This document shows, one piece after another, positions 14,617 to 38,168 of a DNA stretch of 64,000 nucleotides. The notes under the pieces were generated by a model. The model worked only from the letters and a program-made list of their open reading frames with translations, searched no databases and was not told the DNA's origin. The first letter of the stretch is position 1. The number at the start of each line of letters is the position of its first letter. The stretch is from a virus: IMG/VR virus record IMGVR_UViG_3300025849_003059, positions 15,929-79,928 of that record; one strand, 5' to 3'. The position numbers were made by a program, and so were the translations under genes.

Positions 14617-14736
14617 TTAATGATTTTTGTAAATAAAGGGGTCTCTTTTACGAAGCTCTTCTAGTTTCTTTTTATAAATCTTTTCTTTTCTTCGATTCTC
14701 AAAATATAATTTGATTTTTTTTATTATTCCGAACAT
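14617..14736 (-). CDS. Small basic protein (39 aa)
   Basis: Hand translation MFGIIKKIKLYFENRRKEKIYKKKLEELRKRDPFIYKNH. It fills the gap after the 14724 gene. Not in the track. Confidence 0.65.
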   Translation of the reverse strand: MFGIIKKIKLYFENRRKEKIYKKKLEELRKRDPFIYKNH

Positions 14737-16130
14737 AGTATTGAGTGATATTTGTTATTAAACTGATTTTTTATTATTTTTTGTAAATTTTCATAATATT
14801 CTTTTGATACATTTTTACATTTAAAAGTTTCTAAGTGATTTCTATTATAAATAAGTATCGATTCTAATTTTTTTGTAAGAACATCCCATTCTTTTGTTGT
14901 TAAGTTCATCAAATTATCAATAACTTTAGTAATTTTAATAAATCTTTCATGAGGCTGGATTTCATCATCGTAACTTTCATCCCAAAACTCACCAAATGTT
15001 TTAAATCCATAAAACTTTAATAGTTTAAGAAAGTTAGCAGGTCCTACAACTACAAAAGGATGATAATTTATTATAGGTTTTCCAATTTTTTCAGTTAATC
15101 TTAAGTTATTAAAAAATGTAGATTCTGTTACAATACTAAAATATGAATTTTCATACATTTTATAATCATCAAAATAAACTTTATCAAAATCAGTATCCAT
15201 TTTATCTGCTATTCTTTTTTGTGTACTTAAAAATATTTCATACCCCTCACTTAGTGTTGATATTAAATTATCAATATTATCCTGGCCGTTATAAACCTTT
15301 AGATTTTTAATAAACTTGTACTCTCTGCCAAAATTGATATCATATGATAAAAACATATTATCATATTTCTTTCCAAGTAAAAAAGATATAATGGCAATTC
15401 TATAATCTTTTAATCTCTTATTGAGACATACTACTTTATACTCTCTATTACGTTTAAAACCATTTACTATATTTTTTTGTTGAGTTAACTCCTCGATATT
15501 TTCAGAACTTAGTTGAAGTGCCCAAGGATACATAAAATATTTTACATTTAATGGAAAATTATATTTTTTTTCAAATTTTTCTTTATATTCATCAAAAATT
15601 GCACTATCGGTTTGTATTATAATTTTTTCTAGTGGAATATCTCTTTCTTTACAATGGTGATATATCTGTTCTAATACAGTATATGTTAAACCTTCTTGTT
15701 GGTTTCTAAAATATAAAAAAAAGTTTGATTTTGTTTTAAGAGAATCTACAACTATATCTGATAAATTTTCTATATATGATGTTTTTAAAGATAATTCTTT
15801 ATATTGTTCATCAACTGGATTCATTCCATATTCAAAATTACCAGCAGTGTTTATTAAATATAAATAAGTTACCTCTGTTGATGTAATATAACCTTCAGTA
15901 TTAAAATTTAAAGTTGATGTCATATCTACATCTTGCGTAGTAAAATATAAATCCCAATTTGATGCATATGGAAGAAATCCACTATTCATCATATATTTTT
16001 GTCTATAAGAATGAATAGTATGACCTTTTAATTTTACATGATGCATCATATCATCTATGATAAACTGCGGTAATGCGTTTGGAATCCTTATATCATCTAT
16101 TATATTATCAAAAACAAGTCGAATATTCAT
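14724..16130 (-). CDS. TEK-family putative glycosyltransferase (GT10-like C-terminus), paralogue 1
   Basis: CLNKR...SYFSIVTES...LTEKIGKPIINYHPF...GFKTFGEFWDESYD. Confidence 0.5.
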   Translation of the reverse strand: MNIRLVFDNIIDDIRIPNALPQFIIDDMMHHVKLKGHTIHSYRQKYMMNSGFLPYASNWDLYFTTQDVDMTSTLNFNTEGYITSTEVTYLYLINTAGNFEYGMNPVDEQYKELSLKTSYIENLSDIVVDSLKTKSNFFLYFRNQQEGLTYTVLEQIYHHCKERDIPLEKIIIQTDSAIFDEYKEKFEKKYNFPLNVKYFMYPWALQLSSENIEELTQQKNIVNGFKRNREYKVVCLNKRLKDYRIAIISFLLGKKYDNMFLSYDINFGREYKFIKNLKVYNGQDNIDNLISTLSEGYEIFLSTQKRIADKMDTDFDKVYFDDYKMYENSYFSIVTESTFFNNLRLTEKIGKPIINYHPFVVVGPANFLKLLKFYGFKTFGEFWDESYDDEIQPHERFIKITKVIDNLMNLTTKEWDVLTKKLESILIYNRNHLETFKCKNVSKEYYENLQKIIKNQFNNKYHSILCSE

Positions 16131-17551
16131 TAGAATAATTTTATATAAGTTTGGTTATTATTATCAAGCAATTTTATTAAGTTTTCCTTAACAATTTGTT
16201 TAACAGAGTGTTCATCATATTTTAACAATAAATTTCTATTGTGTTTTAAAATTGGAAGCATTTCGTTATACATATCATTCCATTCATTTTTAGATTTATT
16301 TATTAAATTTTTACATAAATTAAATAATGCTATCATTCTATCATTGGGTGATTCCATTTCATCATAACTTTCATCCCAAAAATCATTAAATGTTTTGAAA
16401 CCATATGTTTTTAATTCCTTAAGTGTATATGGAGAACCTACCAAAACAAATGGATGATATTGCATTATTGGTTTTATGGTCTTTTCTGATATAAATCGTG
16501 TGTTATCTTGGAATTCTGTTTCAGTTACTATACTGAAATATGAATTGGTGTATATATCTTTACTTTCCCAACCATACCCTTCAAGAGATTCAATATTATC
16601 ATAATCAACAATTCTTTTTTGATTATTTAAAAGTTTTTTATATCCATCTTTTGCTTTTTGTTTATATTCTTCATTATAAAATATTCTTTGTCTTTTAAAA
16701 TGATGGTCATCTAATTTATCAATAAAAAATGGAAATAGATTTAAATTCATATCATATGAAGTGAAAGAATTTTCTAACAAATTTTCGTTTTCAAGTAATG
16801 ATAAAAGTAAAATTCTATGAAATCGTAATCTTCTATTTAAACATAAAAACTTTTTTGTTTTTGGTTTATTTAAATCACTCTCTACTACTATACTACTTTT
16901 TTTATATTTTTCATTTTTTATTTTATCATATAAAACAGTTTTTAATTCAAAGTTTTTAAATGGAATAGCCCAATTGAATAAACAAATTTTAATTTTATCG
17001 GTTTGGGGAAATTGTTGTAAATATTCATCGTGTAATTCAGATATATTTAATGTACTTGTAATAAAAATTATACTGGTTGGATTTATTTTATGTTTTTTAC
17101 ATTCAAAATATATTTTATCTAAAATATTTCTATCATTATACCCTTCCATTTGATATTCTAAAACCAAATAAAAGTTTTTTGCATTTAAATACTCTAATGT
17201 AGTTGAAGATATATTAGAAAATACACTATTTTCATATTCTTTCATACCAAGAGTAGCTAAAATATTTGAAAATGCAGTTATTGTATAGATGTATATTTCA
17301 TCTGAATTACCTATTGTGTTTGTATCTTTATTATAGGTAATTTCATTTATACAATATTCACCTTTAAATAGCCCTCTCAATAATCTTGGTTTATTTACTT
17401 GTATTGCACCATAAGTATCTTGATAATCTTGATAAAATTCTGAAGATTGTTCAAAATCATGTTTTACAAATAAATCATAATGATTTGGATTGTATCCATT
17501 TGGAATAGGTCCATGTGGTCCTATTATATCATATACATCATTAATTTTCAT
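16130..17551 (-). CDS. TEK-family putative glycosyltransferase, paralogue 2
   Basis: CLNRR...SYFSIVTET...ISEKTIKPIMQYHPF...GFKTFNDFWDESYD. Confidence 0.5.
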   Translation of the reverse strand: MKINDVYDIIGPHGPIPNGYNPNHYDLFVKHDFEQSSEFYQDYQDTYGAIQVNKPRLLRGLFKGEYCINEITYNKDTNTIGNSDEIYIYTITAFSNILATLGMKEYENSVFSNISSTTLEYLNAKNFYLVLEYQMEGYNDRNILDKIYFECKKHKINPTSIIFITSTLNISELHDEYLQQFPQTDKIKICLFNWAIPFKNFELKTVLYDKIKNEKYKKSSIVVESDLNKPKTKKFLCLNRRLRFHRILLLSLLENENLLENSFTSYDMNLNLFPFFIDKLDDHHFKRQRIFYNEEYKQKAKDGYKKLLNNQKRIVDYDNIESLEGYGWESKDIYTNSYFSIVTETEFQDNTRFISEKTIKPIMQYHPFVLVGSPYTLKELKTYGFKTFNDFWDESYDEMESPNDRMIALFNLCKNLINKSKNEWNDMYNEMLPILKHNRNLLLKYDEHSVKQIVKENLIKLLDNNNQTYIKLF

Positions 17552-18089
17552 AGTACAATTCAGGATATTCTACTATAATATGTATTCCACCCCAATCTAA
17601 TGCACGTTGATATGCAGGTACTATTTTTTCTATCTTATCTAATTTTGTAATTGTACAGTTTGTAGTTATTTTTTCAAAGGCATCTGTATAATCTGCTTTG
17701 TGTTGATGGCCTGGGTCTAATGGTTTATCACTTCCCTTACCAACTCTTACAATTACATTTGGTTTCCACTCACCATCAGACATTGCTTCTAATTTATCTA
17801 AATGGTTTACTAATTGATTACAAGCAAGAATTAAGAAATCCCATCTTGGATAAAATGTAACAACTTGATGACCGGTCATTGCCAATCCCATTGTCATTCC
17901 CATTTGAGTTTCTTCCATTACTGGTGTTTCTATCATTCTTTCTTTTGGTAATCCCTCAATCGTTTTACTCATTGGGTTACCATAATAAACTATCTGTTGT
18001 CCGATGAATATTGTTTTATCATCTTCCATTGTAAGTTTCATTGCTTCAGTTAAAGCATCTAAATAAGGTGTGTATTCTGGTTGTGCCAT
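17541..18089 (-). CDS. TPP-dependent E1-beta / transketolase pyrimidine-binding subunit (no C-terminal domain)
   Basis: IETPVMEETQMGMTMGLAMTG...FLILACNQLVN...GHQH. Confidence 0.85.
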   Translation of the reverse strand: MAQPEYTPYLDALTEAMKLTMEDDKTIFIGQQIVYYGNPMSKTIEGLPKERMIETPVMEETQMGMTMGLAMTGHQVVTFYPRWDFLILACNQLVNHLDKLEAMSDGEWKPNVIVRVGKGSDKPLDPGHQHKADYTDAFEKITTNCTITKLDKIEKIVPAYQRALDWGGIHIIVEYPELYYEN

Positions 18090-19081
18090 TATGGTTTTGA
18101 ATTTGGGTCAAACTGGTCTTTGTTTTCTTTATACCATTTTAGTGCATCTTCCAATCCACTTCTTAAATCGTACTTTGGTTTCCAACCGAGTTTTAATAAT
18201 TTTTCATTTGATAATAATCTTGTAGGAATCATCGGTGCTTTGTTGTTTACAAATTCGATTGGATTATCGTTACCTTCAATTTCTTTGATAAGATTAAGAA
18301 CTTCCATTACTGTATGTCCTTTACCATAACAAACATTATAGATATCGTATTTATCTACTTTCTCTGCAACTGTAATAAATCCACCTACCATATCATCTAC
18401 ATGAATAACATCTCTTACTTCAGTACCATCACCCCAAAGTGGGATTGGATTTAATCCATCTGCTACTTTTCTGATATTTGCTGGTGTAACATGACACTTT
18501 TCGAAATCAAACTTATCATTCGGTCCAAACGAGTTGGAAGGTCTAATGATTACACATTGCATCGGGTCGTGAATCTGATTAGAGAAAAACTCACATAAAG
18601 TTTCTCCATATCTTTTCATCCAACCAACTGCCTTATACGCAGGATATATGTTTGGTGTTTGTACATTCATATCTTCAGTACAATATTCTCCACCAATATC
18701 TGGATAAGTTGTATTAGAAGAAATAAACATAAACTTACGAACCTTGTTTCTCCAACTCTGTTCCATAAGATTTGTATTCATTTCAACATTAGGAGTTACA
18801 TGGAGTAGTGGATTCACCTTGGTATCTAACGCATTAGACGTATTCGCAGCACAATGAAAGATAACATCTACACCTTTTGATACTAAATCACAAAAAGATG
18901 CTTCTCTCAAATCCCCATTGACATGTTCAACATTCTCATAACCATCGAAATCTTGACGTAACTCCCTTGACCAACTTGTTGACCTTAGGTTAGTGTAACC
19001 ATTTTCATATAACGATTTTAATAGTCTTGAACCTATGAACCCACTTGCCCCAGTAACTAATATTTTATCTGTTTTTTTCAT
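18089..19081 (-). CDS. NAD-dependent epimerase/reductase (GDP-fucose synthase-like)
   Basis: TGASGFIG, YxxxK-like YKAVGWMKR, RPSNSFGPND and WGDGTEVRD. Confidence 0.85.
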   Translation of the reverse strand: MKKTDKILVTGASGFIGSRLLKSLYENGYTNLRSTSWSRELRQDFDGYENVEHVNGDLREASFCDLVSKGVDVIFHCAANTSNALDTKVNPLLHVTPNVEMNTNLMEQSWRNKVRKFMFISSNTTYPDIGGEYCTEDMNVQTPNIYPAYKAVGWMKRYGETLCEFFSNQIHDPMQCVIIRPSNSFGPNDKFDFEKCHVTPANIRKVADGLNPIPLWGDGTEVRDVIHVDDMVGGFITVAEKVDKYDIYNVCYGKGHTVMEVLNLIKEIEGNDNPIEFVNNKAPMIPTRLLSNEKLLKLGWKPKYDLRSGLEDALKWYKENKDQFDPNSKP

Positions 19082-20009
19082 AATGTTTGTATGTTCTTTT
19101 TATTCCTTGTTCGAATCCTAGTTTTGGTAACAACTCATATTTTTCTTGAATTTTGGTTGACATTTTTCTTCTCATATCACCATTAGGTTTAGTTGTATCC
19201 CAATTAATTTTTATTTCCTTACCACTTGCTTTGGCAACAGTTTCAATCATTCTTTTTATTGATATTTCTTCACCACTACCTAAGTTAGTAGTTATGTGTA
19301 ATTTATCTTCATAACATCTTATACATCCTTCTGCTACATCATCTGCATAAATGAAATCTCTTGTAGGTGTTCCATCTCCCCATGCCTCAATTTCATCAGT
19401 TGCCTCATAAATCTTTCTACAAGTTGCACCAATTACAGTTGCACCTTCACCAAAGTTATCATATTCACCAAAAATATTTGCTGGTCTTACAATTGTCCAC
19501 TTATCATATCCATGTTGTACTTTATATGCTTCTAAATACAACTCTGGTATTCTTTTACTCCAAGATGGAAACCAATCATTTGGTGATGGAAGTGTTTTCC
19601 AAACTGTATCTTCTATAAATTCTTCTGCTGGTTCATATACACCAACTGAACTCATGAAAACCAACCAACAATTATGTTTATGACAATTTTCAATTATATT
19701 AATATTACCTTTAATAGATGGTTCTAAAAAATCTAATGGTTTTTCTTTTGCTCTGATTGGTGAACCTTTAATTCCAAATGCATTAATTACACCATCAAAC
19801 TTATAATATTCAAAGAACACTTCTAATTCTTTTGAATTACGAATATCCATTCTTTCAAAATGAAATTCTGTTTCTGATGGTAAAAATTTAGAATAGTTTA
19901 TATCAATTCCAATTACTCTATACCCTCGTCTTATTAAACCATGAGTTAGATATGTACCAACTAACCCACTACAACCTGTTACTAATATTGTTCCTAAAAA
20001 ACTACCCAT
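19065..20009 (-). CDS. NAD-dependent epimerase/reductase (GDP-fucose synthase-like)
   Basis: TGCSGLVG, RPANIFGEYDN, WGDGTPTRDFIYADD and WDTTKPNG. Confidence 0.85.
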   Translation of the reverse strand: MGSFLGTILVTGCSGLVGTYLTHGLIRRGYRVIGIDINYSKFLPSETEFHFERMDIRNSKELEVFFEYYKFDGVINAFGIKGSPIRAKEKPLDFLEPSIKGNINIIENCHKHNCWLVFMSSVGVYEPAEEFIEDTVWKTLPSPNDWFPSWSKRIPELYLEAYKVQHGYDKWTIVRPANIFGEYDNFGEGATVIGATCRKIYEATDEIEAWGDGTPTRDFIYADDVAEGCIRCYEDKLHITTNLGSGEEISIKRMIETVAKASGKEIKINWDTTKPNGDMRRKMSTKIQEKYELLPKLGFEQGIKRTYKHYEKNR

Positions 20010-20632
20010 TTGCCTGTCCCATAATGTGGGAATTTTGATTCATACTTATAATAGATTACATCTTTTGGTATTTCTCTTTGAATACCACCCCATGTATCTA
20101 ATGTTGGGGTATTTGTACTTACACCATTATCTTCCACAACAAAGTGAAGTGGTAAATCATAGTTTCTCGCATATTTGTGAACTTCATAGAAGATTCCACT
20201 TTCAAATGCCATATCACCTAAAAAAACCCAAACCTTATTTGGACTACCTTGAAGTTTTAAAGCCTTTGCTACACCAAGTGCTATTGGTAAAGTACCAGTT
20301 ACAATTGCTGATGAATAAAATTTAGAATCTTTATCTACAATTGTGATAGATTTACCATCTAATATTTTTTGTTTTAATACTGAAGGTTCTACTCCATGTA
20401 AAAGTGCATGATAATGTGACCTCCAAGTTGAAAATACCCAATCTTCTATACCAATTTTATTAAATATTTTGATAAGTTCACTTTCATTACCATTTGATAA
20501 ATGAATGGGTCCTTTGATTTCTCCATTTTCCCAATGTGAAATGATATCGTTTTCAAAATCAATTAAATCTTGTTTTGACCAATTTCCATCAACCCATCTA
20601 TCTTCGTGATAATCTAAATTTTTAATGTTCAT
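19994..20632 (-). CDS. TPP-dependent E1-alpha-like subunit
   Basis: TPP-binding motif LGDMAFESG...VVEDNG, plus IHLSNGNE and WRSHYH. Confidence 0.85.
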   Translation of the reverse strand: MNIKNLDYHEDRWVDGNWSKQDLIDFENDIISHWENGEIKGPIHLSNGNESELIKIFNKIGIEDWVFSTWRSHYHALLHGVEPSVLKQKILDGKSITIVDKDSKFYSSAIVTGTLPIALGVAKALKLQGSPNKVWVFLGDMAFESGIFYEVHKYARNYDLPLHFVVEDNGVSTNTPTLDTWGGIQREIPKDVIYYKYESKFPHYGTGKWVVF

Positions 20633-21206
20633 ATCTGTCTCGTTTTGATAAGATTGGTGATTGTACTGGCCAATCTATTTTAAATCGTTTATCGTTAAAC
20701 ACAATGGTTTTCTGTGCGGTTTCATCGTTGTACTCACCTTGGTATGCCATTTTGTAAAAGAACATTGAATTATCTTCCATAACAAAATGTCCATTTGCAA
20801 ACATTGGTGGTATAAGAACTTGTGTACCAGTTTCAGGTGAAAGTACAAATGATTCCCATTTTCCATAAGTTGTTGAATGGGGTCTAACATCCAATACTAC
20901 TAAGTAAATTTTACCATGAGGACAACTAACTAATTTCCAAGTTTTCTCATCATAGTGCATTCCTCTAAGAACTCCATACTTTGATTTTGAAAATCTATCG
21001 TGTTTAAATTGTAATCCTTTGTTTCTTTCATTTGCAGGTAATAACCTATCATAATAATCTGAATGATATGTTGTAGATATTGAACCTCTGAACTCGTAAT
21101 AAGTAGATGGTTGTACTACCTTCACTTCATTGAGCACTGAACCATTGTAATAATGGAAATCATTCCAATCTCTTTCTTTATAAAATATACTTCTATTTAA
21201 TGCCAT
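20622..21206 (-). CDS. rfbC: dTDP-4-dehydrorhamnose 3,5-epimerase (cupin)
   Basis: SKSKYGVLRGMHY, KLVSCPHG...VVLDVR and FANGHF. Confidence 0.88.
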   Translation of the reverse strand: MALNRSIFYKERDWNDFHYYNGSVLNEVKVVQPSTYYEFRGSISTTYHSDYYDRLLPANERNKGLQFKHDRFSKSKYGVLRGMHYDEKTWKLVSCPHGKIYLVVLDVRPHSTTYGKWESFVLSPETGTQVLIPPMFANGHFVMEDNSMFFYKMAYQGEYNDETAQKTIVFNDKRFKIDWPVQSPILSKRDRYEH

Positions 21207-22158
21207 AACCTAGTGGAAAATCATTTCTATATTTAGAACTTAAATCTGATATTAGAATTGTGTAAGTTTTTATTAACTCTTCTATACCCTTTTCTAATGT
21301 ATATTGAGGTTTCCATGCATTAGATTCTAATTTTTGATTAGATACTACATAATCTCTTTTATCAGGGTCCTCGTAATTATCGTTGTAGAAAATTTGAAAA
21401 GATGGTATCTGTTCTTGTATTGCTTCACACAATTGTTGTTTAGTAAGATTTGCTTCTGATAACCCTACATTGTACACTTCACCACTATGTAGATAATATT
21501 CTTCAATCATACTTCTAAATACCAAAGCAACATCTCTGATGTGAATGAAGTTTCTTACAAATTTCTTTTCAAATAATACTATGGATTTATCTGTTAGGGC
21601 TTTGTAAACAAATTCGTTTACTAATAAATCCATTCTCATTCTTGGTGAAGTTCCAAAAACAGTAGCAAGACGTAAAGAGATTCCTCCTATCCCAAGAACC
21701 TCTTTTTCTGCCTCAACTTTGGTTTTTCCATAGTGGGAAATCGGGTTAAGTGGACTTTCTTCAGTACACACCCCATTCTCTCCTATCCCATATCCACTAT
21801 TTGTGTTCGGATAAACCACCTTTTTATCATTTTCTTTTGCAATATCACAAACAAACTTAACGTGCTCGTAATTTATTTGTGTTGCTAATTCTTTATCTCT
21901 TTCACAAGCAGGAAATCCTACGATTGCTGCAAGTGGAATAATTACATCATTTTGTAATACTAATTCTTTTAGTAATTCTTTATCTCTTACATCACCATTA
22001 ATGAATTTAAAAGTTTCATAGTGTGAAAAGTTTATAACAGATGTTTGATTATACATCATGTTATCTAATATTGTAACTTGTTTTGAATCTTGTAATAATA
22101 CTTCTGTAATTACAGAACCTAAGTAACCTGCACCACCAGTAATTAGTATTTTTGTCAT
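21193..22158 (-). CDS. NAD-dependent epimerase/dehydratase (extended SDR)
   Basis: TGGAGYLG, YGKTK and LRLATVFG. Confidence 0.88.
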   Translation of the reverse strand: MTKILITGGAGYLGSVITEVLLQDSKQVTILDNMMYNQTSVINFSHYETFKFINGDVRDKELLKELVLQNDVIIPLAAIVGFPACERDKELATQINYEHVKFVCDIAKENDKKVVYPNTNSGYGIGENGVCTEESPLNPISHYGKTKVEAEKEVLGIGGISLRLATVFGTSPRMRMDLLVNEFVYKALTDKSIVLFEKKFVRNFIHIRDVALVFRSMIEEYYLHSGEVYNVGLSEANLTKQQLCEAIQEQIPSFQIFYNDNYEDPDKRDYVVSNQKLESNAWKPQYTLEKGIEELIKTYTILISDLSSKYRNDFPLGYGIK

Positions 22159-23357
22159 AAAACTGTATTTTTAATAATCAATTCATTTAATTCGCTAAAT
22201 GTATTTGAAAACGATTGATTTCTTGAGTTATCTAAAATTTTATTTTTTAAAATAAAGTTATCCCACGAATTTCTATTAAAATCTTTTGAATTCATGCTAT
22301 TCAAAACACCGAACATACTATCTTTAACATGAGGTGGAATATATTCCTTATATAAATATATATTAAATTTTTTATTTATCGTATTTTTTACAGCATTTGG
22401 TAAGTTTGATGGTGCATAAAAATCAGGCCATGATACATCAATAAAGTATGGATTCATTTTCATGTCCAAACACCAATCTACTAATTCATCTAAATAAAAT
22501 ATACTTAAATTTGTAACTGTAACTGCAACGTCAAAATCAATTTTATCTGATTTGTATTTTAACCAGTTTTCAATATTAGATTTTACTTGATTCCAATCTC
22601 CATGGTGTCTTATATAATTAAACCTATCTTTAGTAGCATCAATAGAGAATGAAATAACTACTCTTTTAAATTGTTTAAGTATATCAATATATTCTTCTCT
22701 AAATATTGTACCATTTGTATTAAAATGTAGTTCTTGATTTTTAGAATATCCAAGTTCTATCGATTTTTTTAGAGTTTCCCATTGTTTTTTTATCAACATT
22801 GGTTCTCCACCGTACATATCAATGTGTGTTATCTCGGATAGGTTCTCTTCAATCTCATTCCAAAAAATTGAAGAATCATCATATGATTTATAATAAGTTT
22901 TTACCCATTCTTTATAAACATTATCATCAGAATGACCACCACTATCATCATGTAGTATTCTATGTTCATCAAACCATTTAATTGATGCACCAACTGAACA
23001 CATTCTACAAGCAAGATTACAAGTATTACCAAGATTTAGTTCTAAAAATTTTAATTTAATAGAATCATCTATATGAAATCGTTCATTATCATTTATTCTT
23101 TTACTTTTATTTGAATTTTTTTCATCTACCCAACATCGTTTACACCCATCGTGTTTAATCCCATTTTCCAAATCCTCAATAAGTTGTTTCCTATCAGGAC
23201 TGTGCATCATTTCTTCAAAAGTGTGTGTATCGGTTTTTATGATATTTCCTTTTGTATCTTTGAATGGTTTAGATTCATCGTAATAACAACATGGGGTGAT
23301 ATAACCACCATTTGCTACTCGTAATCCACTATAAGAATGTACACATCTTAAATCCAT
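22155..23357 (-). CDS. Radical SAM protein with N-terminal SPASM/twitch-like Cys cluster (1 of 6)
   Basis: CNLACRMC and GGEP; N-terminal C...PCC...CKRC. Confidence 0.9.
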   Translation of the reverse strand: MDLRCVHSYSGLRVANGGYITPCCYYDESKPFKDTKGNIIKTDTHTFEEMMHSPDRKQLIEDLENGIKHDGCKRCWVDEKNSNKSKRINDNERFHIDDSIKLKFLELNLGNTCNLACRMCSVGASIKWFDEHRILHDDSGGHSDDNVYKEWVKTYYKSYDDSSIFWNEIEENLSEITHIDMYGGEPMLIKKQWETLKKSIELGYSKNQELHFNTNGTIFREEYIDILKQFKRVVISFSIDATKDRFNYIRHHGDWNQVKSNIENWLKYKSDKIDFDVAVTVTNLSIFYLDELVDWCLDMKMNPYFIDVSWPDFYAPSNLPNAVKNTINKKFNIYLYKEYIPPHVKDSMFGVLNSMNSKDFNRNSWDNFILKNKILDNSRNQSFSNTFSELNELIIKNTVL

Positions 23358-23689
23358 TATGATTCTATAATTTTAAAATTATCAAATATTTCAATATATT
23401 CTTTTAATTTTTTTGAAAGTATTTTATTTAAATCAATTCCATCTAAAATTGATTTTCTTTTATTTTTTACAACAATCAAAAATGTATTTGAATTATCATT
23501 TAACATTTGGGATGTTAGTCGATGTGTTAATGTTTTTTTATGGTTTGGATATTTTTCTTTGAATGATTTTTTATCAGTAATTGTATTTTTTAGTATATTT
23601 GATAAATTTTCTTTTTGATAATTAAATGGTACATATCCATTTGGTGTTAAAAAATCATACACAACGTAAAACTTTGTAAAATCTCTCAT
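23357..23689 (-). CDS. Hypothetical protein resembling the N-terminus of the TEK-family proteins
   Basis: YDFLTPNGYVP compared with YDIIGPHGPIPNG in the 16130 gene. Confidence 0.55.
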   Translation of the reverse strand: MRDFTKFYVVYDFLTPNGYVPFNYQKENLSNILKNTITDKKSFKEKYPNHKKTLTHRLTSQMLNDNSNTFLIVVKNKRKSILDGIDLNKILSKKLKEYIEIFDNFKIIES

Positions 23690-30795: not shown

Positions 30796-32209
30796 TTAGT
30801 TTTTTACATTGATTAAAAAAGTCAACTAACTCTGGAAATGTTTCGTGGAAATTAGTTCCTCTACGTTTATCGTGTGCAGAAATAAAATTGTAAAAATCTC
30901 TACGAGTCCTCTTAAGTGTTTCTTCATCCACTTCTTCGTCAAACCAATCAATAATTCTTTTTATTTTTCCAATTTCAATTTGAGTAAATCCTAAGTAATG
31001 GTCTTTCCAATCTTCAATTTCCCATAAAGGTTTAACCGTATGCATTGTTTCTGCTTGAGTTACAAACTCTTCTAATCTTTCTTTAAACTCTCTTGGTAGT
31101 ATTTTAACAGTTTGATGGTGTGGGTATCTTAAATACGCAGAATCTAATGTTAGGGCAGTTACCCAATATCTATCTGGTGAGTTGTGTAGTGTTTTCATTT
31201 CAAAAACCCACTCTAAAAGTTCACCATAACGTAAAATTGATAGTGCGTTGAAGGTTGACATTATAGCTATTGATAATTTTGTTGTTTTTGAAAGAAGTTC
31301 ATCAACTCTTTTTTGCCAAATAGGGAAATCTAATCCATTTCGTGCATATTCTGCTTGTTCTCCAAAAGTATCTACTGATGTAAATACTGTAAGTTCTTTT
31401 ATTCTTCCACTTTCTTCTAATTCAATCATTTTTGCTAAGAACTTATCGTATATTTTATCAGGTATACCTAAGTTTGTGTTTATAGAAAGTTTTAAATTAG
31501 TGTTTGGATTATCTGTTGTAAGAATGTGTTCTACTACCCTCCAAAAATCAGGTGACATTGTTGGTTCACCACCCGTTATTCTAAAAGTATCCATATCTTT
31601 ATACAAATCTGGCCACCACTCCCAAAATGCATCTACATATGGGTTTGCTTCAGAATGTTTATATGGCATTTTACCATTTTCTTGTAACCATTCTAAGTTT
31701 CCAAAGTTATCTGATGTTGGGTATGCACCATGTTGTTTTATTTCCTCTACCCACTTTGATGAATATTGAGGACCACAATAAGAACACTTAAAATTACAAG
31801 CATTTGAGAAGGCAACTTCAACATATTTTGGATTGTAGTTTTCTCTCCAACCCAATTCTTTGATTTTATCAAAATGTGGTTTAGACCAAGGTTCAAATGA
31901 TTTATAGTGTCTATCAGAAAACTCAGGTCCACTATCTTCAACCTTCCAACAATAATCACACTCTGGTGGTCTTTCGTTGTTAAGCATCATTTTTCTTTGC
32001 TTCTTCTTGTGTCTTGTGTTGTGAAGTGCGGTTGGGTTTCTTTTTAATTCTCTTAATGGAATTTTATGTGGAATGGGGTGATGACACGAGTGTGTTTCAC
32101 CTGTTTGAAGATGTATTGTAACTTGAGTCCATTTTGCTAAACAAAATCCACAACCAACATCATCTAGTTGTTCTCTAAAATCATATAACTGTCCTCTATG
32201 GTCTATCAT
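30776..32209 (-). CDS. Radical SAM protein (6 of 6)
   Basis: CNFKCSYC and TGGEP; N-terminal FCLAKW...SCHHP...ECDYCW. Confidence 0.9.
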   Translation of the reverse strand: MIDHRGQLYDFREQLDDVGCGFCLAKWTQVTIHLQTGETHSCHHPIPHKIPLRELKRNPTALHNTRHKKKQRKMMLNNERPPECDYCWKVEDSGPEFSDRHYKSFEPWSKPHFDKIKELGWRENYNPKYVEVAFSNACNFKCSYCGPQYSSKWVEEIKQHGAYPTSDNFGNLEWLQENGKMPYKHSEANPYVDAFWEWWPDLYKDMDTFRITGGEPTMSPDFWRVVEHILTTDNPNTNLKLSINTNLGIPDKIYDKFLAKMIELEESGRIKELTVFTSVDTFGEQAEYARNGLDFPIWQKRVDELLSKTTKLSIAIMSTFNALSILRYGELLEWVFEMKTLHNSPDRYWVTALTLDSAYLRYPHHQTVKILPREFKERLEEFVTQAETMHTVKPLWEIEDWKDHYLGFTQIEIGKIKRIIDWFDEEVDEETLKRTRRDFYNFISAHDKRRGTNFHETFPELVDFFNQCKKLNEEFLQ

Positions 32210-33654
32210 AAACTGATTTTTATCATATTAACTAGTTTCTTTTTTGATACTTTTTTTTCTTTAAATCTTAGAGTATTTAAACCTTCAATTTTATAATTAT
32301 CAAAATCTTCTCTAACTTCATTATAAAATCTAATTTGATTTTTTCTAGTATCAGAATGTATCCACTTATTTCCAATAGATGAATTTGATTTATGTTTTAA
32401 AGATTTAAATCTACTTTCTCTTCTATGTGGTTTTGGTAGATATGATTTAAAAGATTCTATACCCTTGTATAAATATGTATTGTATAATTTTATGTTATTC
32501 TGCTGAGCTATATCAATACATTCTTCTTTTTTAGAAAATTCTGGTAATATCTGACATAATAAAAATTCTGATGATATGAAGTTATCAAAATTTCTTATTT
32601 TGGGTGTTGTTGGATTTTCGTATATTGATTTAACTTCGTTTGAATCTAATCCAACATCATATATTTCAACTACACCAACTTTTCCAATTAAAAATTCTTT
32701 GTTTGTTTTTTTACTATTAGGTGCACCTACAAATATCTCATCAGTTGATAATTGTAAAATTTCAGTATCCATTTCTATTTTTTCAATCAATTCACCATTG
32801 ACGTAAAATGAAATAAATTTATTATCTTCATATGTCATTGTTAGATGTGTCCATGCTTCACCCATTATATCAGAAGATATTGAATATGCTTTTTTATTCA
32901 AATCATAAGTCTGACAAAAGTATCTACGAAAGGAATTGTAAAATAATCCAATGTTGTAGCCTGGTATAGATAATATTGGGAATTCATCATAATCTTTATT
33001 TTTACTTAATTTTATTTCTTCTGGTTTTACTAAAACTGAAATAGTGAAATCATCTTCCAATAAAATAGAATCTTTTGTTGAAATTTTTATATAACTTCTA
33101 TCACCATCTAATTTGAATGAATGAATTTCACTTACATTGGAATTACCAAACACTTCTTTGTCAATATCCAATCCTGCTTGAATACATCTTATCAATAAAT
33201 CATCATCTTCGAATCCCCATCCCCAATATTCATTGGAGAATCCATTGATAGTTTTAAAATCTTCTTTGGTAAACATTGTTACTCCACCAAAGTAATCAAA
33301 GAATGTTGTTTCGTAATCGTGTTCTTGTAAATGAGTTGCTAAATGTAAAGGTTTATCTGAATATGAGTAATCTACATCTTCTGGTAACATATCAACATCA
33401 TGAAATACAAAATAATCACACCCTTTATCAACGGCATACTTATATCCTGCATTCAGAAGTTTACCTCTATTAAAAGGTTTATCATCTGTCTGTTCAACGA
33501 TGAAGATTTCATAATCAATATCCTTAATATAATCTTTCATATGAGATAAGAACCTTTTCAGTTGTTGTTCTCTATCTCTATATGGAACTATTATACCAAG
33601 TTTATGAGTTATCTTCTTCTCCTTGAGTCTCTTTGTTCTCTTGGATTCTCTCAC
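32206..33654 (-). CDS. GT7 with inserted LamG domain (2 of 3)
   Basis: VPYRDR, FNRGKLLN, HDVDM and WGWGFEDDD; LamG LDGDRSYI; tail EGLNTL. Confidence 0.88.
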   Translation of the reverse strand: MRESKRTKRLKEKKITHKLGIIVPYRDREQQLKRFLSHMKDYIKDIDYEIFIVEQTDDKPFNRGKLLNAGYKYAVDKGCDYFVFHDVDMLPEDVDYSYSDKPLHLATHLQEHDYETTFFDYFGGVTMFTKEDFKTINGFSNEYWGWGFEDDDLLIRCIQAGLDIDKEVFGNSNVSEIHSFKLDGDRSYIKISTKDSILLEDDFTISVLVKPEEIKLSKNKDYDEFPILSIPGYNIGLFYNSFRRYFCQTYDLNKKAYSISSDIMGEAWTHLTMTYEDNKFISFYVNGELIEKIEMDTEILQLSTDEIFVGAPNSKKTNKEFLIGKVGVVEIYDVGLDSNEVKSIYENPTTPKIRNFDNFISSEFLLCQILPEFSKKEECIDIAQQNNIKLYNTYLYKGIESFKSYLPKPHRRESRFKSLKHKSNSSIGNKWIHSDTRKNQIRFYNEVREDFDNYKIEGLNTLRFKEKKVSKKKLVNMIKISL

Positions 33655-33877
33655 TTCCTCTTTCGGGTCTGTTTATACTTCCTTTTGTTCTTGTTTTGAA
33701 AATTTGAAAAAATTCATTCAAATACCACTCTAATCTTTCAGACCATTCTACTAGTCCAACATCCTCGTTGTAATCATTTCGTTCTTCGAGGGCATCTGCG
33801 ATTCTTCCAAAAGCCTTAGCCATCTTTTCATAGGCCTCAACTTTTCTTTCTTCAAAGTTATTATCTTTATCTGCCAT
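33602..33877 (-). CDS. Hypothetical acidic protein (91 aa)
   Basis: ORF between two GT7 genes. Confidence 0.6.
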   Translation of the reverse strand: MADKDNNFEERKVEAYEKMAKAFGRIADALEERNDYNEDVGLVEWSERLEWYLNEFFQIFKTRTKGSINRPERGSERIQENKETQGEEDNS

Positions 33878-33881
33878 AATA

Positions 33882-35339
33882 TTAAGTTATTATTCTTACT
33901 AATTTATATTCACTTCTATCTTGGATATCCATTATTTTATATTTTAATGTAGATAATCCAATTTTTTTATAATCAAGTTCATCTGTTAACACTTCGTTAA
34001 AGAAAATATCAGCATTCTCTTCAATATCAGGGTCATATTCATAATATTTTTCAATAATATTTTCATCATCATCGTGTACTAATGACTTGTACTTACCATC
34101 CAATCTAACTGGTATGGAAATTTCATCTGTTAGGTATATTTCTTCATTTGATAAATTAAAATTACTACCTTCAATATTTAAATGATTGTAATTCTTACCT
34201 GAATCTAATACCACCCTATTTTTATATAACTTATCAAAGTTAAAAAAGTTACTCAATACAATACCATATTTATTTTTTAATAAATCAAGGTTAGATTTTC
34301 CATTATAATATAGGTCAGATACGATATCATCATTTATTTTACTAGAAATACAAAAGATATCTGCTAGTTTAATTTCAGAATTTGTATCTGATATTTTAAT
34401 TGAATGATTTTTATAATCGTATAATTTAAAATCTTTTGGTAAGTTACCACTAACTTTAATATTATTAAGATATAATGATATTTTATCATCATCAAAAGAA
34501 AAAACTGCATGATTCCATGTGTTTTTATAATAAGTTTGACTTATCTCTTGGTGTTTTTCTTTTGTATCCCATATTTGACCTATTAAGTATTTACCATCTG
34601 ATAAAAATAGACCAGAATCACATCCTTCAAACGCAAATAAGTTTTTAGGATAATCACCTCCATTATCTTTAAACCATAATGATATTGTAAACTGTTTTTC
34701 TATATCGTTTTGGGTTAATTTATTTATAACACCATAGAATCTAGTATCTTTTTCGATTTCAACTAAATTTAGTGTTTGTTTTTTTGGATTATTGCTCAAA
34801 TCAACATCTTCAATTCTATATGGTAGGATATCATCATTATTATATTTTGAATATGTTTTGTTTAAATCATAATATACTTCAAGATATGCATCACTTTTTT
34901 CTAATCTATATAATAAATCTAAATCACTAAAACCATAACCATAGTATTCTGGTGAGTAACCATTTGAATTTTCAAAATCTTCTCTATTAATTAACAAAAC
35001 ACCACCCATATATTGAGGATAGGGTAGTTCACCATTATGAGCCTCAACATCATTTGCTAAATGAGTTGGTTCATCAACATAAGAATAATCACATTCATCT
35101 GTCATTGGTAACATATCAATATCGTGGAAACAAAAATAGTTATATTCTGCATCTATTTCCTTAACAACAGCATTACATAGTTTTCCATAATTAAATGGTC
35201 TATCATCTGCTTGTTCAGCTATAAAAATATCATAATCAATTCCTTTACCATCTAAGAATTCATGCATATGAGGAACAAATGTATTTAAATGTTCTTCTCT
35301 ATCTCTATATGGAACGATTATTGCTAATTTATCACTCAT
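33882..35339 (-). CDS. GT7 with inserted LamG domain (3 of 3; degenerate EDDD motif)
   Basis: VPYRDR, FNYGKL and HDIDM; GYGFSDLD replaces WGxEDDD; tail IGLSTLKY. Confidence 0.82.
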   Translation of the reverse strand: MSDKLAIIVPYRDREEHLNTFVPHMHEFLDGKGIDYDIFIAEQADDRPFNYGKLCNAVVKEIDAEYNYFCFHDIDMLPMTDECDYSYVDEPTHLANDVEAHNGELPYPQYMGGVLLINREDFENSNGYSPEYYGYGFSDLDLLYRLEKSDAYLEVYYDLNKTYSKYNNDDILPYRIEDVDLSNNPKKQTLNLVEIEKDTRFYGVINKLTQNDIEKQFTISLWFKDNGGDYPKNLFAFEGCDSGLFLSDGKYLIGQIWDTKEKHQEISQTYYKNTWNHAVFSFDDDKISLYLNNIKVSGNLPKDFKLYDYKNHSIKISDTNSEIKLADIFCISSKINDDIVSDLYYNGKSNLDLLKNKYGIVLSNFFNFDKLYKNRVVLDSGKNYNHLNIEGSNFNLSNEEIYLTDEISIPVRLDGKYKSLVHDDDENIIEKYYEYDPDIEENADIFFNEVLTDELDYKKIGLSTLKYKIMDIQDRSEYKLVRIIT

Positions 35340-36214
35340 ATTCTAATAACCTTTTTTGTTATCGTATCCCAATGTTTATAAGATGAATGTAAATTATCTT
35401 CTGAATCTTGTATGTAAAATTCTTTATCAGATATATCAATCTTATAATCATTTAATTGTATTGCTCTATACATTTTTTTATATTCTTTCCAAAATGTATA
35501 ATCTTCTTTTGTATTCGATACTTCTTTTAACCTATCCAACACAGTAGAATCCCATTTGAAGTGATGAACTTGTACAAACCCACTACCATCTTCTAAAATA
35601 TTTTTTTTGTTTATGTGTCCAATTGGGTATCGTTGTGGATGAAATATACTTCCATATCCCCAAGTATTTTTACCATCTCCTAAATCAACATAGTGTTGTC
35701 CTGCGGTAACATTAACTGAACCTTTCATTACACAAACCTTATTTGGACATGCACCACTCAATGGATTTCTAAAAAATCCAACATTAGGGAACTCTTTCCA
35801 TATATCACTATCTTTCGATATATTTGGGAATTCCCCATTCACACCTATTCTATCCAAAAATCCACCAGTAATAAATGTCCAACCATTTTCTTCACATCGT
35901 TGAATCATTGTTCGTAATGGAATTGGATATATGTGAAACTCATCGTCGTCCGAAACCACCCACCATTCATTTGGTTTTGTTTGTTTTACTTTGTTGTATA
36001 ATTCAGTTACCTTCTCCCAATGAAATTTAGGTTCTGTAACAACCATATAAGGTTCTACACCACACTTCTTTACTTCTTCAAGTATTCCATCATCTTCACT
36101 CTGTCTGTACACTACAACGAAGATTTCATCTACTATCGATTCGTAGTGTTTTATCATATGGGGAAGCAAAGTAGTATTGTGTCCTACTATCGTAACCAAA
36201 TTTATTTTTTGCAT
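35336..36214 (-). CDS. Glycosyltransferase family 2-like (GT-A fold)
   Basis: WWVVSDDDEF DxD motif; VHHFKW. Confidence 0.7.
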   Translation of the reverse strand: MQKINLVTIVGHNTTLLPHMIKHYESIVDEIFVVVYRQSEDDGILEEVKKCGVEPYMVVTEPKFHWEKVTELYNKVKQTKPNEWWVVSDDDEFHIYPIPLRTMIQRCEENGWTFITGGFLDRIGVNGEFPNISKDSDIWKEFPNVGFFRNPLSGACPNKVCVMKGSVNVTAGQHYVDLGDGKNTWGYGSIFHPQRYPIGHINKKNILEDGSGFVQVHHFKWDSTVLDRLKEVSNTKEDYTFWKEYKKMYRAIQLNDYKIDISDKEFYIQDSEDNLHSSYKHWDTITKKVIRI

Positions 36215-36984
36215 TTTTGTATGAATGTTAAACCGGTAGAAGATGGTTTAGATTTAAATATACCATTGTTAAAAAAGTTAAAAACCTCCCAATCTTTATC
36301 TTCTTTTAATTCTTTAATTAATTTTGAAGGTCCTTCTGCAAATTCATCGTGATGATTTTGGTCTGTGATATCTTTTGTTATAATATATTCTTTTTCGAAT
36401 GAATCATCAGTATCGTGTATTGATATTATTCCATGAGGTGAGAGTAATTTGGAATATAATTCAAAATCAAGTTTTACATCCTCGTATGTATGACCGGCAT
36501 CTATATGAAGGTAGTCAATTTTTATATCTTCTTTTACAAAAAAGTTATAATAAGCATTTTCAGTAGTTTCATTTATAATTCTTGGAAAAAACTTTTTTCT
36601 TAGATAGGAATTTTCTTCTAACCAATCTACATTACCTCCAACTCCATTTGCGGCATCTACTAAAAAAGTAACACCGATATCTCCCCAATTATAATCTCTA
36701 TTTCCTTCGAAGATTCCGGCATCATATAAATCAATTCTTGATTGTGTCATGATTCGTGGAATGAATCCACCACCACTCCCTAAACATACACATACTTTTG
36801 CACGAAGATAATGAATAACACTATACACCAACAAACCATCTCCCATACTAAATTCAGTAGCACCATGTGTCCATCTATATGCTAGTGGAGAATGTTCAGT
36901 ATATTCACGACCATCTTCAGCTTTCTTAGTATATAAGTTATTGGTTATAAAATCTTTTATATAATTTAAATTAAGAATATTCAT
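36202..36984 (-). CDS. Class I SAM-dependent methyltransferase (Methyltransf_24-like)
   Basis: VCLGSGGG; IDYLHIDAGHTYEDVKLD...LSPHGIISIHD. Confidence 0.85.
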   Translation of the reverse strand: MNILNLNYIKDFITNNLYTKKAEDGREYTEHSPLAYRWTHGATEFSMGDGLLVYSVIHYLRAKVCVCLGSGGGFIPRIMTQSRIDLYDAGIFEGNRDYNWGDIGVTFLVDAANGVGGNVDWLEENSYLRKKFFPRIINETTENAYYNFFVKEDIKIDYLHIDAGHTYEDVKLDFELYSKLLSPHGIISIHDTDDSFEKEYIITKDITDQNHHDEFAEGPSKLIKELKEDKDWEVFNFFNNGIFKSKPSSTGLTFIQKCKK

Positions 36985-37027
36985 TTAGTGTTTATAGTTA
37001 TAAAGCTTAACCCCCTACCCCCTTGTA

Positions 37028-37035
37028 TATAAATA
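37028..37035 (-). promoter_or_regulatory. TATTTATA motif heading the ~22-kb glycan operon
   Basis: Intergenic copy. No further sizeable intergenic gap occurs until about 14.6 kb. Confidence 0.6.
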
Positions 37036-37063
37036 TATAAAAATATATAAAACGTAAAATAAA

Positions 37064-38143
37064 TTACCAAAAAGAAAGTATTTGAGTTCGGACATTATCT
37101 GCCCATTCTTTTTTATTATCGAATCGTTTCATGAATCCTATTAATTTATCTCTTTCAATTGAACGTTCTTGGTGAGAATCTCGTAAGATTTGTTTGATAC
37201 ATTTATCAAATTCGTTTTTAGTAGATGCTCTATATTTGTAATCTAATTCGGGTGCCCAATCTTTATTAATTATTGGTAATTTTCCATAATCAACCGCCTC
37301 AAAGATACTATATCCAAATGGTTCTCTAAAAGATGCTCCATGAAAAATACCCCAATTTTTTGTGAAAAAAGCATTCTTTATTTTTGGGTCCCATTGGTAA
37401 ATATCTACTGAAGGCATTTGATATCGTGTGGTATCTCTTAAATTTTTTACATCAAACTGACCGGTCAATGCATATCCTTTATCTATACCATGCATCCAAT
37501 GTAAACACTTTCTAGTTTCAGCTCTAGCAGCATAACCAACTGTTCCATTATTAACGTTTGGAGTTAATGAAGCAGGACCTCTGAATTCATAATAGTTTGG
37601 TAAATAATAAGTATAGTTTGGAAAATCTGATAATAATTGAGAACTATTTAAACCTATCCAAATTCTTCTTTTACAAGTTAATAAAAATTCACTATACCAC
37701 TTTTCATCAACTTTTGTTTGAAATTGTAATCTATCTAATTCTGGTAGATATTTCCATATCTCTTTCATATCTTTTGGATATGCATGTACGAAACAAATAC
37801 CAAATATATCTTCAAACTTCCATAAATGTTCTCTCATGTGATAATGAGGATGTAAGAAATGAACCCAATTTGATTCTCTACCCCATTGTTCAGTAATAGA
37901 TGGGTCATCATAGTGAAAGTGAAATCTTAGACCAGGTGGAAGTGATTCTTCTTTAAAATTACTAGGTCTTTTTGAATCAATTAACAATCTATATCTTCTT
38001 TTATTTGGTAGTTTTGTCCATACTTCCTTTAAAAAATTATTTACCCAAATATCTGCTCCACCTTGAACTGTATTTCCTGCACCAGTACAAACTAAAAGAA
38101 TCCAAGGTGTTGATTTTGATGATTTTTTAACAACTTCTGACAT
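37064..38143 (-). CDS. Glycosyltransferase, GT-B/GT4-like
   Basis: REPFGYSIFEAVDYGKLPII matches the GT4 E-x7-E motif; N-terminal GGADIW. Confidence 0.75.
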   Translation of the reverse strand: MSEVVKKSSKSTPWILLVCTGAGNTVQGGADIWVNNFLKEVWTKLPNKRRYRLLIDSKRPSNFKEESLPPGLRFHFHYDDPSITEQWGRESNWVHFLHPHYHMREHLWKFEDIFGICFVHAYPKDMKEIWKYLPELDRLQFQTKVDEKWYSEFLLTCKRRIWIGLNSSQLLSDFPNYTYYLPNYYEFRGPASLTPNVNNGTVGYAARAETRKCLHWMHGIDKGYALTGQFDVKNLRDTTRYQMPSVDIYQWDPKIKNAFFTKNWGIFHGASFREPFGYSIFEAVDYGKLPIINKDWAPELDYKYRASTKNEFDKCIKQILRDSHQERSIERDKLIGFMKRFDNKKEWADNVRTQILSFW

Positions 38144-38160: not shown

Positions 38161-38168
38161 TATAAATA
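38161..38168 (-). promoter_or_regulatory. TATTTATA putative late-promoter motif
   Basis: Intergenic, upstream of the 38143 start. Confidence 0.6.

Follow-up and report, generated by a model that had tools for sequence, protein, structure and literature searches.

The marine phage DNA in IMG/VR record IMGVR_UViG_3300025849_003059 carries an island of ∼23 kb whose gene content supports what an earlier note on this DNA had proposed, a locus for glycan building and tailoring. The window analyzed here is the 64,000-nucleotide stretch at positions 15,929 to 79,928 of that record, and all coordinates refer to it. The reading we favor, tentatively and with somewhat less than even confidence, is that the island encodes a cytoplasmic glycosylation-and-tailoring system that is co-expressed with virion genes and whose likely acceptors are Ser/Thr-rich fiber proteins. 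Virion proteins are favored over the host envelope because a promoter-like motif is common to the island and the structural genes, because such cassettes are repeatedly placed beside fiber and tail genes, and because the GT7-LamG and TEK protein families are found only in viruses.

The island comprises 23 minus-strand open reading frames (ORFs) at 14724-38143, and all junctions between them overlap or abut (-67 to +4 nt) with the sole exception of a 79-nt gap between the first two genes; the tight packing recognized in the earlier note is thus borne out, and this operon-like arrangement counts toward the favored reading. In the order of transcription, the genes code for unk359, a probable GT-B glycosyltransferase (37064..38143); an S-adenosylmethionine (SAM)-dependent methyltransferase (MT; 36202..36984); a GT2-like protein of the GT-A type (35336..36214); GT7c, a GT7 glycosyltransferase with an inserted laminin G (LamG) domain (33882..35339); the small acidic protein unk91 (33602..33877); GT7b (32206..33654); the radical SAM proteins rSAM6 to rSAM2 (30776-32209, 29425-30795, 28073-29443, 26776-28080, and 25514-26776); a small cytidylyltransferase (25107..25517); GT7a (23686..25173); the small basic protein unk110 (23357..23689); and rSAM1 (22155..23357). 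These are followed by a sugar block of three short-chain dehydrogenase/reductases (SDRs), RmlC, and a split E1-like pair, in the order SDR3 (21193-22158), RmlC (20622-21206), E1-alpha (19994-20632), SDR2 (19065-20009), SDR1 (18089-19081), and E1-beta (17541-18089), and then by two paralogous TEK genes (14724..17551). Family matches were obtained for the three GT7-LamG proteins, the six radical SAM proteins, the methyltransferase, the cytidylyltransferase, the three SDRs, RmlC (RfbC), and the E1 alpha/beta pair, all of which had been named from the letters alone. The island appears to encode about seven sugar-transferring enzymes, three of which (the GT7 proteins) are confirmed.

A short promoter-like motif, with the core TATTTATA and the extended consensus ATATTTATATA, links the island to the virion genes. 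The core is present in 18 copies on the coding strand, 10 of which (at 5695, 7903, 10862, 14594, 37028, 38161, 49374, 58129, 59450, and 61419) are in the intergenic 3.2% of the window, defined as the part outside the listed ORFs of at least 100 aa; the positional expectation is ∼0.6 intergenic copies, an estimate that ignores the AT-richness of the spacers. Nine of the 10 intergenic copies are 15 to 43 nt before a start codon; the remaining copy, at 58129, immediately precedes a small ORF and is separated by 220 nt from the next one of at least 100 aa. The two copies reported earlier are both present on the coding (minus) strand, one (38161..38168) 17 nt before the first island gene and the other (37028..37035) 43 nt before the methyltransferase gene. 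The motif thus precedes both 5' island genes as well as the giant fiber gene (49374), a gene for a 1225-aa protein, terminase- and portal-adjacent genes, and three genes at 58 to 61 kb, and zero copies stand ahead of the replication block from SbcC to primase at 49.6 to 57.9 kb. This distribution suggests that the phage has two promoter classes, and the motif by itself supports co-regulation of the island with virion genes. Of the late co-expression with virion assembly that had been proposed, the promoter-like motif common to the island and the structural genes stands, and late timing is a prediction from that motif.

The GT7 proteins are enzymes with an unusual interruption. All three score 47 to 83 bits against Glyco_transf_7N and Glyco_transf_7C (cut-offs 23 to 27), with GT7c matching GT7N at an E value of 3e-22, GT7C at 2e-12, and Laminin_G_3 at 5e-7, and GT7a likewise matching all three profiles. 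GT7b matches the PDB at an E value of 1e-34, with 36 to 40% identity to animal B4GalT1 and B4GalT7 over residues 16 to 167. Among 18 sequences, including the three paralogues, the residues H85-D86-x-D88, W144...E149-D150-x-D152, H421, and G458 show no or almost no variation, and we take these to be the DxD, WGxEDDD, C-terminal metal-binding His, and DGLN positions of B4GalT1. The GT-A domain is not contiguous, and this is a variant architecture in which a LamG jelly-roll of ∼190 residues (∼174 to 360 of GT7b) splits the catalytic domain after EDDD and before the His/DGLN segment; an AlphaFold2 (AF2) model of GT7b (mean pLDDT 77, with a low-confidence N-terminus) has the same interrupted layout. 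The catalytic residues are thus intact despite the lectin-like insertion. The architecture is found in 2,491 proteins at E values of 1e-5 or lower and only in viral Atlas clusters, and a protein search of GenBank phage records with GT7b gave zero matches. We note that GT7b and GT7a, as listed, begin at GTG (33654) and TTG (25173) codons that lie 53 and 67 nt inside the genes before them, and the true starts may be further downstream.

The remaining transferase candidates are assigned less firmly. The unk359 protein, which the earlier note called a GT4 enzyme, has no match in Pfam, NCBIfam, or PHROG, and what stands of that assignment is an E-x7-E-like motif, weak fold matches to GlgM, PimA, and BshA (E values about 3e-3), with T4 beta-glucosyltransferase (BGT; about 1e-2) ranked behind the GT4-type enzymes, and Atlas neighbors carrying Glycos_transf_1. 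An AF2 model is poor at residues 198 to 279, such that the fold could not settle GT4 versus a DNA transferase, and the protein is a probable GT-B glycosyltransferase. The presumed GT2 protein scores below the Pfam cut-off (Glyco_tranf_2_4, 25.1 versus 27.5 bits), and its SDDDE and HHFKW motifs are invariant across three lineages. The two TEK proteins (473 and 468 aa) are genuine paralogues with 30% mutual identity in a virus-only family (Atlas clusters 100% viral), some members of which are fused to SDR or methyltransferase domains. The TEK profile has spurious lipocalin matches only in the PDB and none in Pfam, a search of GenBank phage records with one TEK protein gave zero matches, and a weak GT10 lead (Atlas feature score 0.78 to 0.79 only) makes it possible that these are GT10-like (fucosyltransferase-like) transferases. 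The methyltransferase (Methyltransf_24, Pfam E value 8.5e-11) is 67 to 88% identical in relatives and is also present in the cassettes of contigs L082 and L083. The small unk91 is an acidic helical protein that is always encoded just upstream of a GT7-LamG gene (32 to 40% identity in L065, L082, and L083), and unk110 is poorly conserved (35 to 41% in relatives); neither contains Cys or has a family match, and a PHROGs search with the unknown proteins of the island gave zero matches.

These assignments bear on whether the glycans might instead be built on hydroxymethylated phage bases, protecting the DNA against restriction and CRISPR, which we regard as very improbable. T4-like phages do glucosylate their DNA, phage GT-A and GT-B enzymes put diverse glycans on 5-hydroxymethylcytosine (10.1101/2023.12.21.572611), thymidine hypermodification clusters reportedly include radical SAM enzymes (PMC8989533), and one cluster among the unk359 Atlas neighbors carries the T4 alpha-glucosyltransferase (AGT) domain. 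We considered unk359 as an AGT relative and rejected this, as the hhalign probability against the AGT profile is 0.1%. Neither a ThyA-like hydroxymethylase nor TET/JBP was found in the 83-kb record, which is 32% complete, and the Tet_JBP search was blank in control genomes too; a 76%-complete relative codes only for canonical ThyA (matching solved thymidylate synthases at E values of about 1e-75), with no Tet_JBP match. The island methyltransferase is of the Methyltransf_24 type and not a DNA C5-methyltransferase, known DNA-glycan clusters adjoin base-modifying and replication genes (10.1101/2023.12.21.572611), and seven transferases with lectin-like domains go far beyond any known DNA glycan. 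A DNA acceptor is thus unlikely given the failure to find hydroxymethylase and TET genes in this partial record, the canonical ThyA of the relative, the lack of relationship between unk359 and AGT, and the placement of the cluster. That virion proteins fit better than DNA, as previously argued, holds with respect to DNA, with soluble-looking enzymes and no DNA-base hydroxymethylation genes found, although the host envelope is still a rival.

The six radical SAM proteins all match the NCBIfam model NF033640 (N_Twi_rSAM) with E values of 1e-84 to 1e-120 (rSAM1 at 1.9e-86) and 283 to 401 bits, well over the curated cut-off of 170 bits, and each covers nearly all of the 398 model positions. Invariant in the six paralogues are C133, C137, and C140 of the CxxxCxxC motif and C18, C37, C78, and C81 of the Twitch domain. 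BtrN is the only meaningful PDB sequence match, at an E value of 0.002 and confined to the Twitch domain, where each of the four Cys residues of rSAM3 is aligned with a counterpart in BtrN. A literature search yielded no characterized NF033640 member, in agreement with the earlier view that the array has no characterized counterpart. By analogy with BtrN, the most likely chemistry would be oxidation or epimerization through abstraction of a sugar hydrogen.

The array is old. Its paralogues are only 22 to 29% identical to each other, and orthologues in other viral contigs are 45 to 96% identical and keep their order: 6-5-4-3-2(-1) in close relatives, 6-4-3 in L063, L082, and L083, 5-4-3-3'-2 in L004 to L012, and 6-4 or 6 alone in L052 to L061. 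Because the paralogues are divergent and the same-order orthologues closer, we conclude that these are old specialized subfamilies arranged like the steps of a pathway and not a recent amplification. In most cassettes with GT7 genes, these are immediately followed by an rSAM6-type gene, the exceptions being L001 and L002, in which the array is upstream of them. The wider NF033640-type family has 5,499 proteins at E values of 1e-10 or lower. A genome scan with a single radical SAM protein identified few cellular loci. A Bdellovibrionales metagenome-assembled genome (MAG; G002) has 24 NF033640 matches, 21 of them above the cut-off, and a marine gammaproteobacterial MAG (G003) has 14 matches. The neighbors of arrays in these MAGs and in other viral contigs include genes for carbamoyltransferase, APS-kinase-like, sulfotransferase, CMP-sugar synthetase, 2-oxoglutarate (2OG)-oxygenase, epimerase, and GDSL-type proteins, which by their predicted functions constitute a tailoring context.

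There are additional curiosities among these arrays. Loci L084 to L089 also code for a GFO/IDH/MocA-radical SAM fusion, a B12-radical SAM protein, and GDSL lipases, and some of the nominally bacterial contigs with arrays look phage-like, being dense and one-stranded with giant ORFs. ORFs of 194 to 227 aa lie between radical SAM genes at L082:5976-6620, L082:7965-8558, L063:3454-4038, and L065:6617-7300; three of the four are mutually homologous, and the fourth has a subthreshold Laminin_G_3 match (E value 2.7e-4). Another ORF between radical SAM genes has subthreshold LamG similarity by BLAST (E value 0.36).

The sugar-nucleotide module is consistent with the supply of an unusual sugar. SDR3 resembles GalE, heptose epimerase, and dTDP-glucose dehydratase, SDR1 and SDR2 are Fcl-like, and the three are SDR epimerase/dehydratase family members encoded together with RmlC. 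Flanked by these SDR and RmlC genes is an E1 alpha/beta-like thiamine pyrophosphate (TPP) pair, a gene set of the AviB1/AviB2 type. The E1-alpha-like protein (E1_dh, E value 1.9e-13) has only the PP domain, with a GD...EDNG TPP-binding motif, and the E1-beta-like protein (Transket_pyr; E value 5e-14 to E1-beta of pyruvate dehydrogenase) has only the Pyr domain, the matches covering profile positions 6 to 168 of 300 and 7 to 140 of 327, respectively. At 212 and 182 aa, the proteins are shorter than complete E1 subunits, which have about 325 and 345 aa. The 136-aa cytidylyl/adenylyltransferase (CTP_transf_like, E value 1.4e-12) resembles RfaE domain II and TagD (rfaE_dom_II, 1e-13, below the cut-off) and is present in all close relatives. 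The gene content does not show the complete pathway that had been suggested. None of the island ORFs codes for a sugar-1-phosphate nucleotidyltransferase of the usual kind, a kinase, or a mutase, and the sugar module (17541..22158) is optional, being present among relatives only in L003/L057, L056, L059, and L065/L066 and missing from most.

The module and the array also raise the prospect of a diffusible product, in which the island would make a free tailored oligosaccharide or an aminoglycoside-like metabolite directed against competitors or manipulating the host. The closest characterized analogues, BtrN, AviB1/AviB2, and Pau11/Pau12, do stem from antibiotic pathways, related arrays adjoin carbamoyltransferase, APS-kinase-like, sulfotransferase, and 2OG-oxygenase genes, and the authors of a cyanophage study assigned a comparable radical SAM gene to 'antibiotic synthesis' (PMC12801897). 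We nonetheless consider this improbable, in that an aglycone- or cyclitol-forming enzyme, an aminotransferase, an exporter, and a resistance gene are all absent from the island, the LamG insertion suggests a large acceptor, and the cassette is consistently within structural and fiber modules.

The more serious question is whether the sugars are destined for the cell surface. The predicted enzymes look soluble, with no hydrophobic 19-mer above a Kyte-Doolittle score of 1.7 in any of the 23 island proteins, and Pfam searches of these proteins identified no Wzx, Wzy, ABC exporter, or initiating phosphoglycosyl transferase. The island is therefore not a self-contained surface-polysaccharide pathway, lacking as it does a flippase, a polymerase, an exporter, an initiating transferase, and membrane segments. 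It could still remodel the host envelope if its nucleoside diphosphate (NDP)-sugars were put on undecaprenyl-linked O-antigen, capsule, or S-layer intermediates and displayed by a host flippase or exporter, thereby blocking superinfection or the readsorption of progeny to infected cells and debris. This is the reading offered for the analogous region of pelagimyophages (PMC7029224), and SDR, RmlC, and Fcl-like enzymes are typical of O-antigen synthesis, the O-antigen transferases of the cytoplasmic face are often soluble, and the cassette is hypervariable between relatives, like surface-antigen loci. We view envelope remodeling as possible but doubtful, since an initiating phosphoglycosyl transferase, a flippase, a polymerase, a ligase, and a membrane protein of the Gtr type are all missing from the island, its promoter-like motif is common to head and fiber genes and not to the replication block, and GT7-LamG and TEK proteins are in viral clusters only and not in bacterial surface-glycan loci.

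The island is located between tail fiber and head genes, just as the earlier note placed it. Upstream is a giant 2573-aa protein (41630..49351, minus strand), identified as a tail fiber by its C-terminal Peptidase_S74 chaperone domain (E value 1e-13), followed by a 1146-aa Ser/Thr-rich protein (38187..41627, minus strand) with a BACON match below the cut-off (E value 1.8e-4) that is probably a fiber-associated structural protein and a candidate acceptor. Ser and Thr make up 23% of the fiber (pI 4.3) and 31% of the BACON protein (pI 4.1) but only 8 to 14% of the island enzymes, and homologues of the giant fiber stand upstream of the cassette in close relatives. Downstream are the 1225-aa multidomain protein (10895-14572, minus strand), with an N-terminal cytidylyltransferase-like domain, an HD domain, and its own ATATTTATATA motif at 14594, then two unknown genes, and then the terminase, portal, and prohead protease genes. 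We note a 33-nt tandem repeat within the giant fiber gene at 43137-43229 (2.8 copies, 96% matching). A 259-aa protein encoded beside the SbcC-like gene (52743-53522, minus strand) has a GDSL/SGNH hydrolase match below the cut-off (E value 4.7e-4) and might be a glycan esterase or an acyl-transfer enzyme outside the island.

The fiber composition also informs the idea that the radical SAM array acts on the fiber protein itself, forming cross-links, epimerized residues, or oxidized side chains, with glycosylation a separate matter. Most characterized SPASM/Twitch enzymes are peptide maturases, the secondary NCBIfam matches are to PapB, SkfB, and XyeB, and there are arrays behind giant proteins with no GT7 genes within 10 kb. 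With only 4 Cys among the 2573 residues of the fiber and 1 among the 1146 of the BACON protein, thioether chemistry is unlikely; the small conserved ORFs contain no Cys and are unlike the precursors of ribosomally synthesized and posttranslationally modified peptides; and by sequence the Twitch domain matches only BtrN in the PDB, which is a dehydrogenase of the carbohydrate type. We therefore give little credence to a protein-acting array.

The source record is an 83,472-bp entry with an estimated completeness of ∼32%, in which nearly all ORFs of at least 100 aa are on one strand and the portal, large terminase, and prohead protease are T4-like. The portal protein is closest among cultured phages to those of Microcystis phage Mel-JY01 (51%) and Flavobacterium phage immuto (45%), and judged by this protein the phage is neither a pelagimyophage nor a cyanomyophage. 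A 200,815-bp contig of a relative carries the same island, including the sugar block, with three GT7-LamG and seven radical SAM genes, and the full genome is therefore expected to be that of a T4-like phage of ∼200 to 260 kb. In this relative the island is also followed by the long cytidylyltransferase-bearing protein, there with CTP_transf_like and DUF5661 domains. At least seven studies have yielded near-identical DNA in their marine, estuary, or seawater metagenomes, and a nucleotide search of 50,697 GenBank phage records with the island gave zero matches; the phage is uncultured yet widespread in the sea.

Close relatives have in common a core of unk359-MT-GT2-GT7c-unk91-GT7b-CytT-GT7a, where CytT is the cytidylyltransferase, accompanied by one to seven radical SAM genes and by a variable number of TEK genes. 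In several lineages the cassette is again linked to a giant fiber gene. The differently organized 107-kb phage contig L083 codes in turn for an S74 fiber, DUF6734, an MT24 methyltransferase, a GT2-like protein, a 61-aa unk91 homologue, two GT7-LamG proteins, three radical SAM proteins, a TEK homologue, UDP-glucose dehydrogenase, and a tail sheath. Transferase genes are thus embedded in the structural module both here and in L083, co-regulation being indicated by the motif only. In the 330-kb contig L090 and in L081, radical SAM arrays likewise come after genes for large proteins, of 3499 and 1526 aa, respectively. Just downstream of the L082 cassette is a 908-aa gene with intein/Hint matches (L082:15843-18569).

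The GC content is 25 to 27% at 14000-18000 (the TEK genes) and 22000-24000 (around rSAM1 and unk110) versus 30 to 35% in the flanks, and these low-GC stretches may have been acquired more recently. Metagenome contigs matching 18300-38250 have alternative junctions (e.g., 23499 to 32230 and 25276 to 32696), which may reflect co-occurring relatives with another cassette order or may be artifacts of short anchors and paralogous GT7 genes.

The virion glycosylation that we favor would proceed as follows. The island would supply the enzymes of a phage host-recognition cluster and be transcribed with virion genes from ATATTTATATA-type promoters. SDR3 and RmlC would convert a host NDP-hexose to an epimerized 4-keto-6-deoxy NDP-sugar, a two-carbon branch would be attached to it by the minimal TPP pair in the manner of AviB1/AviB2 and Pau11/Pau12, the Fcl-like SDR2 and SDR1 would reduce the product, and the small cytidylyltransferase would activate a second phospho-substrate. 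About seven soluble transferases (GT-B-like, GT2-like, three GT7, and perhaps the two TEK proteins) would then build an oligosaccharide, with LamG, inserted beside the acceptor site of GT7, serving as an acceptor-recognition module. The methyltransferase and the six radical SAM proteins would tailor the sugars, the latter by hydrogen-atom abstraction and probably through oxidation or epimerization as in BtrN. The acceptors would be virion proteins in the same cytoplasm, foremost the giant fiber and the BACON protein. A bolder extension, which we consider rather unlikely, is that the ordered N-terminal-Twitch arrays are a new class of polymer-level glycan editors (radical epimerases or oxidases) that act on fiber-attached sugars and are brought to the same acceptor by LamG modules such as those inserted in the GT7 enzymes.

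Several observations weigh against virion glycosylation. Attachment of glycans to virion proteins is predicted from genes alone, the contig is only about one-third complete, and fibers are often rich in Ser and Thr anyway. Soluble transferases can work on undecaprenyl-linked host intermediates, so that the absence of membrane proteins is compatible with envelope remodeling as well. The motif TATTTATA differs from TATAAATA, the late consensus of T4, and a search of two partial genomes for gp55 came back empty, which says little given the incomplete sequence. Short contigs in two marine metatranscriptomes are identical to many places across the island, but they reveal neither strand, level, nor timing, and DNA carry-over is possible. 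The sugar chemistry of NF033640 proteins is a prediction, and in bacterial MAGs the neighbors of their genes code for carbamoyltransferases, oxygenases, and lipases and are not evident glycan genes.

Marine myophages spend tens of kilobases beside their tail fibers on sugar genes, the purpose of which has been puzzling since the first cyanophage genomes, and this cassette joins three families with no biochemistry, GT7-LamG, TEK, and NF033640, the last with thousands of members. It is conserved, ordered, and expressible, and its target would settle whether abundant ocean phages glycosylate themselves and provide a first function for NF033640. If the arrays are polymer-level editors, their gain and loss would give marine phages a combinatorial 'glycan code' on the host-recognition apparatus.

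The components of the island have recognizable but distinct counterparts. Like animal beta-1,4-galactosyltransferases, the phage GT7 proteins keep the DxD, WGxEDDD, His, and DGLN elements, with 36 to 40% identity over ∼155 residues, but they have a LamG insert and no membrane anchor. NF033640 proteins have in common with BtrN-type Twitch dehydrogenases a CxxxCxxC core and a four-Cys Twitch auxiliary-cluster domain, although the Twitch domain precedes the radical SAM core in NF033640 and follows it in BtrN, and the NF033640 genes form ordered arrays of one to eight paralogues. AviB1/AviB2 and Pau11/Pau12 are E1-like enzymes proposed for two-carbon sugar branching (PMC4425429, PMC4753412), Pau11 and Pau12 being 325 and 345 aa (PMC4425429). 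The phage pair is similarly encoded among NDP-sugar 4-keto, epimerase, and reductase genes, but its subunits are cut down to the PP and Pyr domains, and the activity is a prediction. DNA glycan hypermodification in T4 and other phages (10.1101/2023.12.21.572611) likewise uses phage GT-A and GT-B transferases in T4-like phages, whereas no hydroxymethylase, TET, or C5-methyltransferase partner was found here and the island is away from replication genes.

At the level of whole systems, chloroviruses and mimiviruses have virus-encoded virion glycosylation with their own sugar-nucleotide synthesis and methylation. Mycobacteriophage virion glycosylation has also been reported (Freeman et al. 2023, as cited in PMC12619734); the citing moraphage paper, itself considered as a source and set aside, deals with a different lineage and offers general citations only. 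As in these systems, the transferases of the island are encoded by the virus itself, beside structural genes, and are predicted to be cytoplasmic. Mycobacteriophages rely on host sugars and on one or two transferases, and radical SAM proteins, GT7-LamG fusions, and TPP-dependent branching are not known from the mycobacteriophage, chlorovirus, and mimivirus systems but are all predicted in the phage described here. The closest parallel in placement is the host-recognition cluster of pelagimyophages and cyanomyophages, where glycosyltransferase and radical SAM cassettes are in a large hypervariable region beside the tail fibers of marine myophages (PMC7029224). The general arrangement is thus already published, in an account that favors modification of the host O-chain and does not provide family assignment, enzyme anatomy, or mechanism. 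New here are the family identity of the array and its ordered orthologous structure, the intact but interrupted GT7 enzymes, the motif common to the island and the structural genes, and the recurrence of the cassette beside fiber genes in several lineages.

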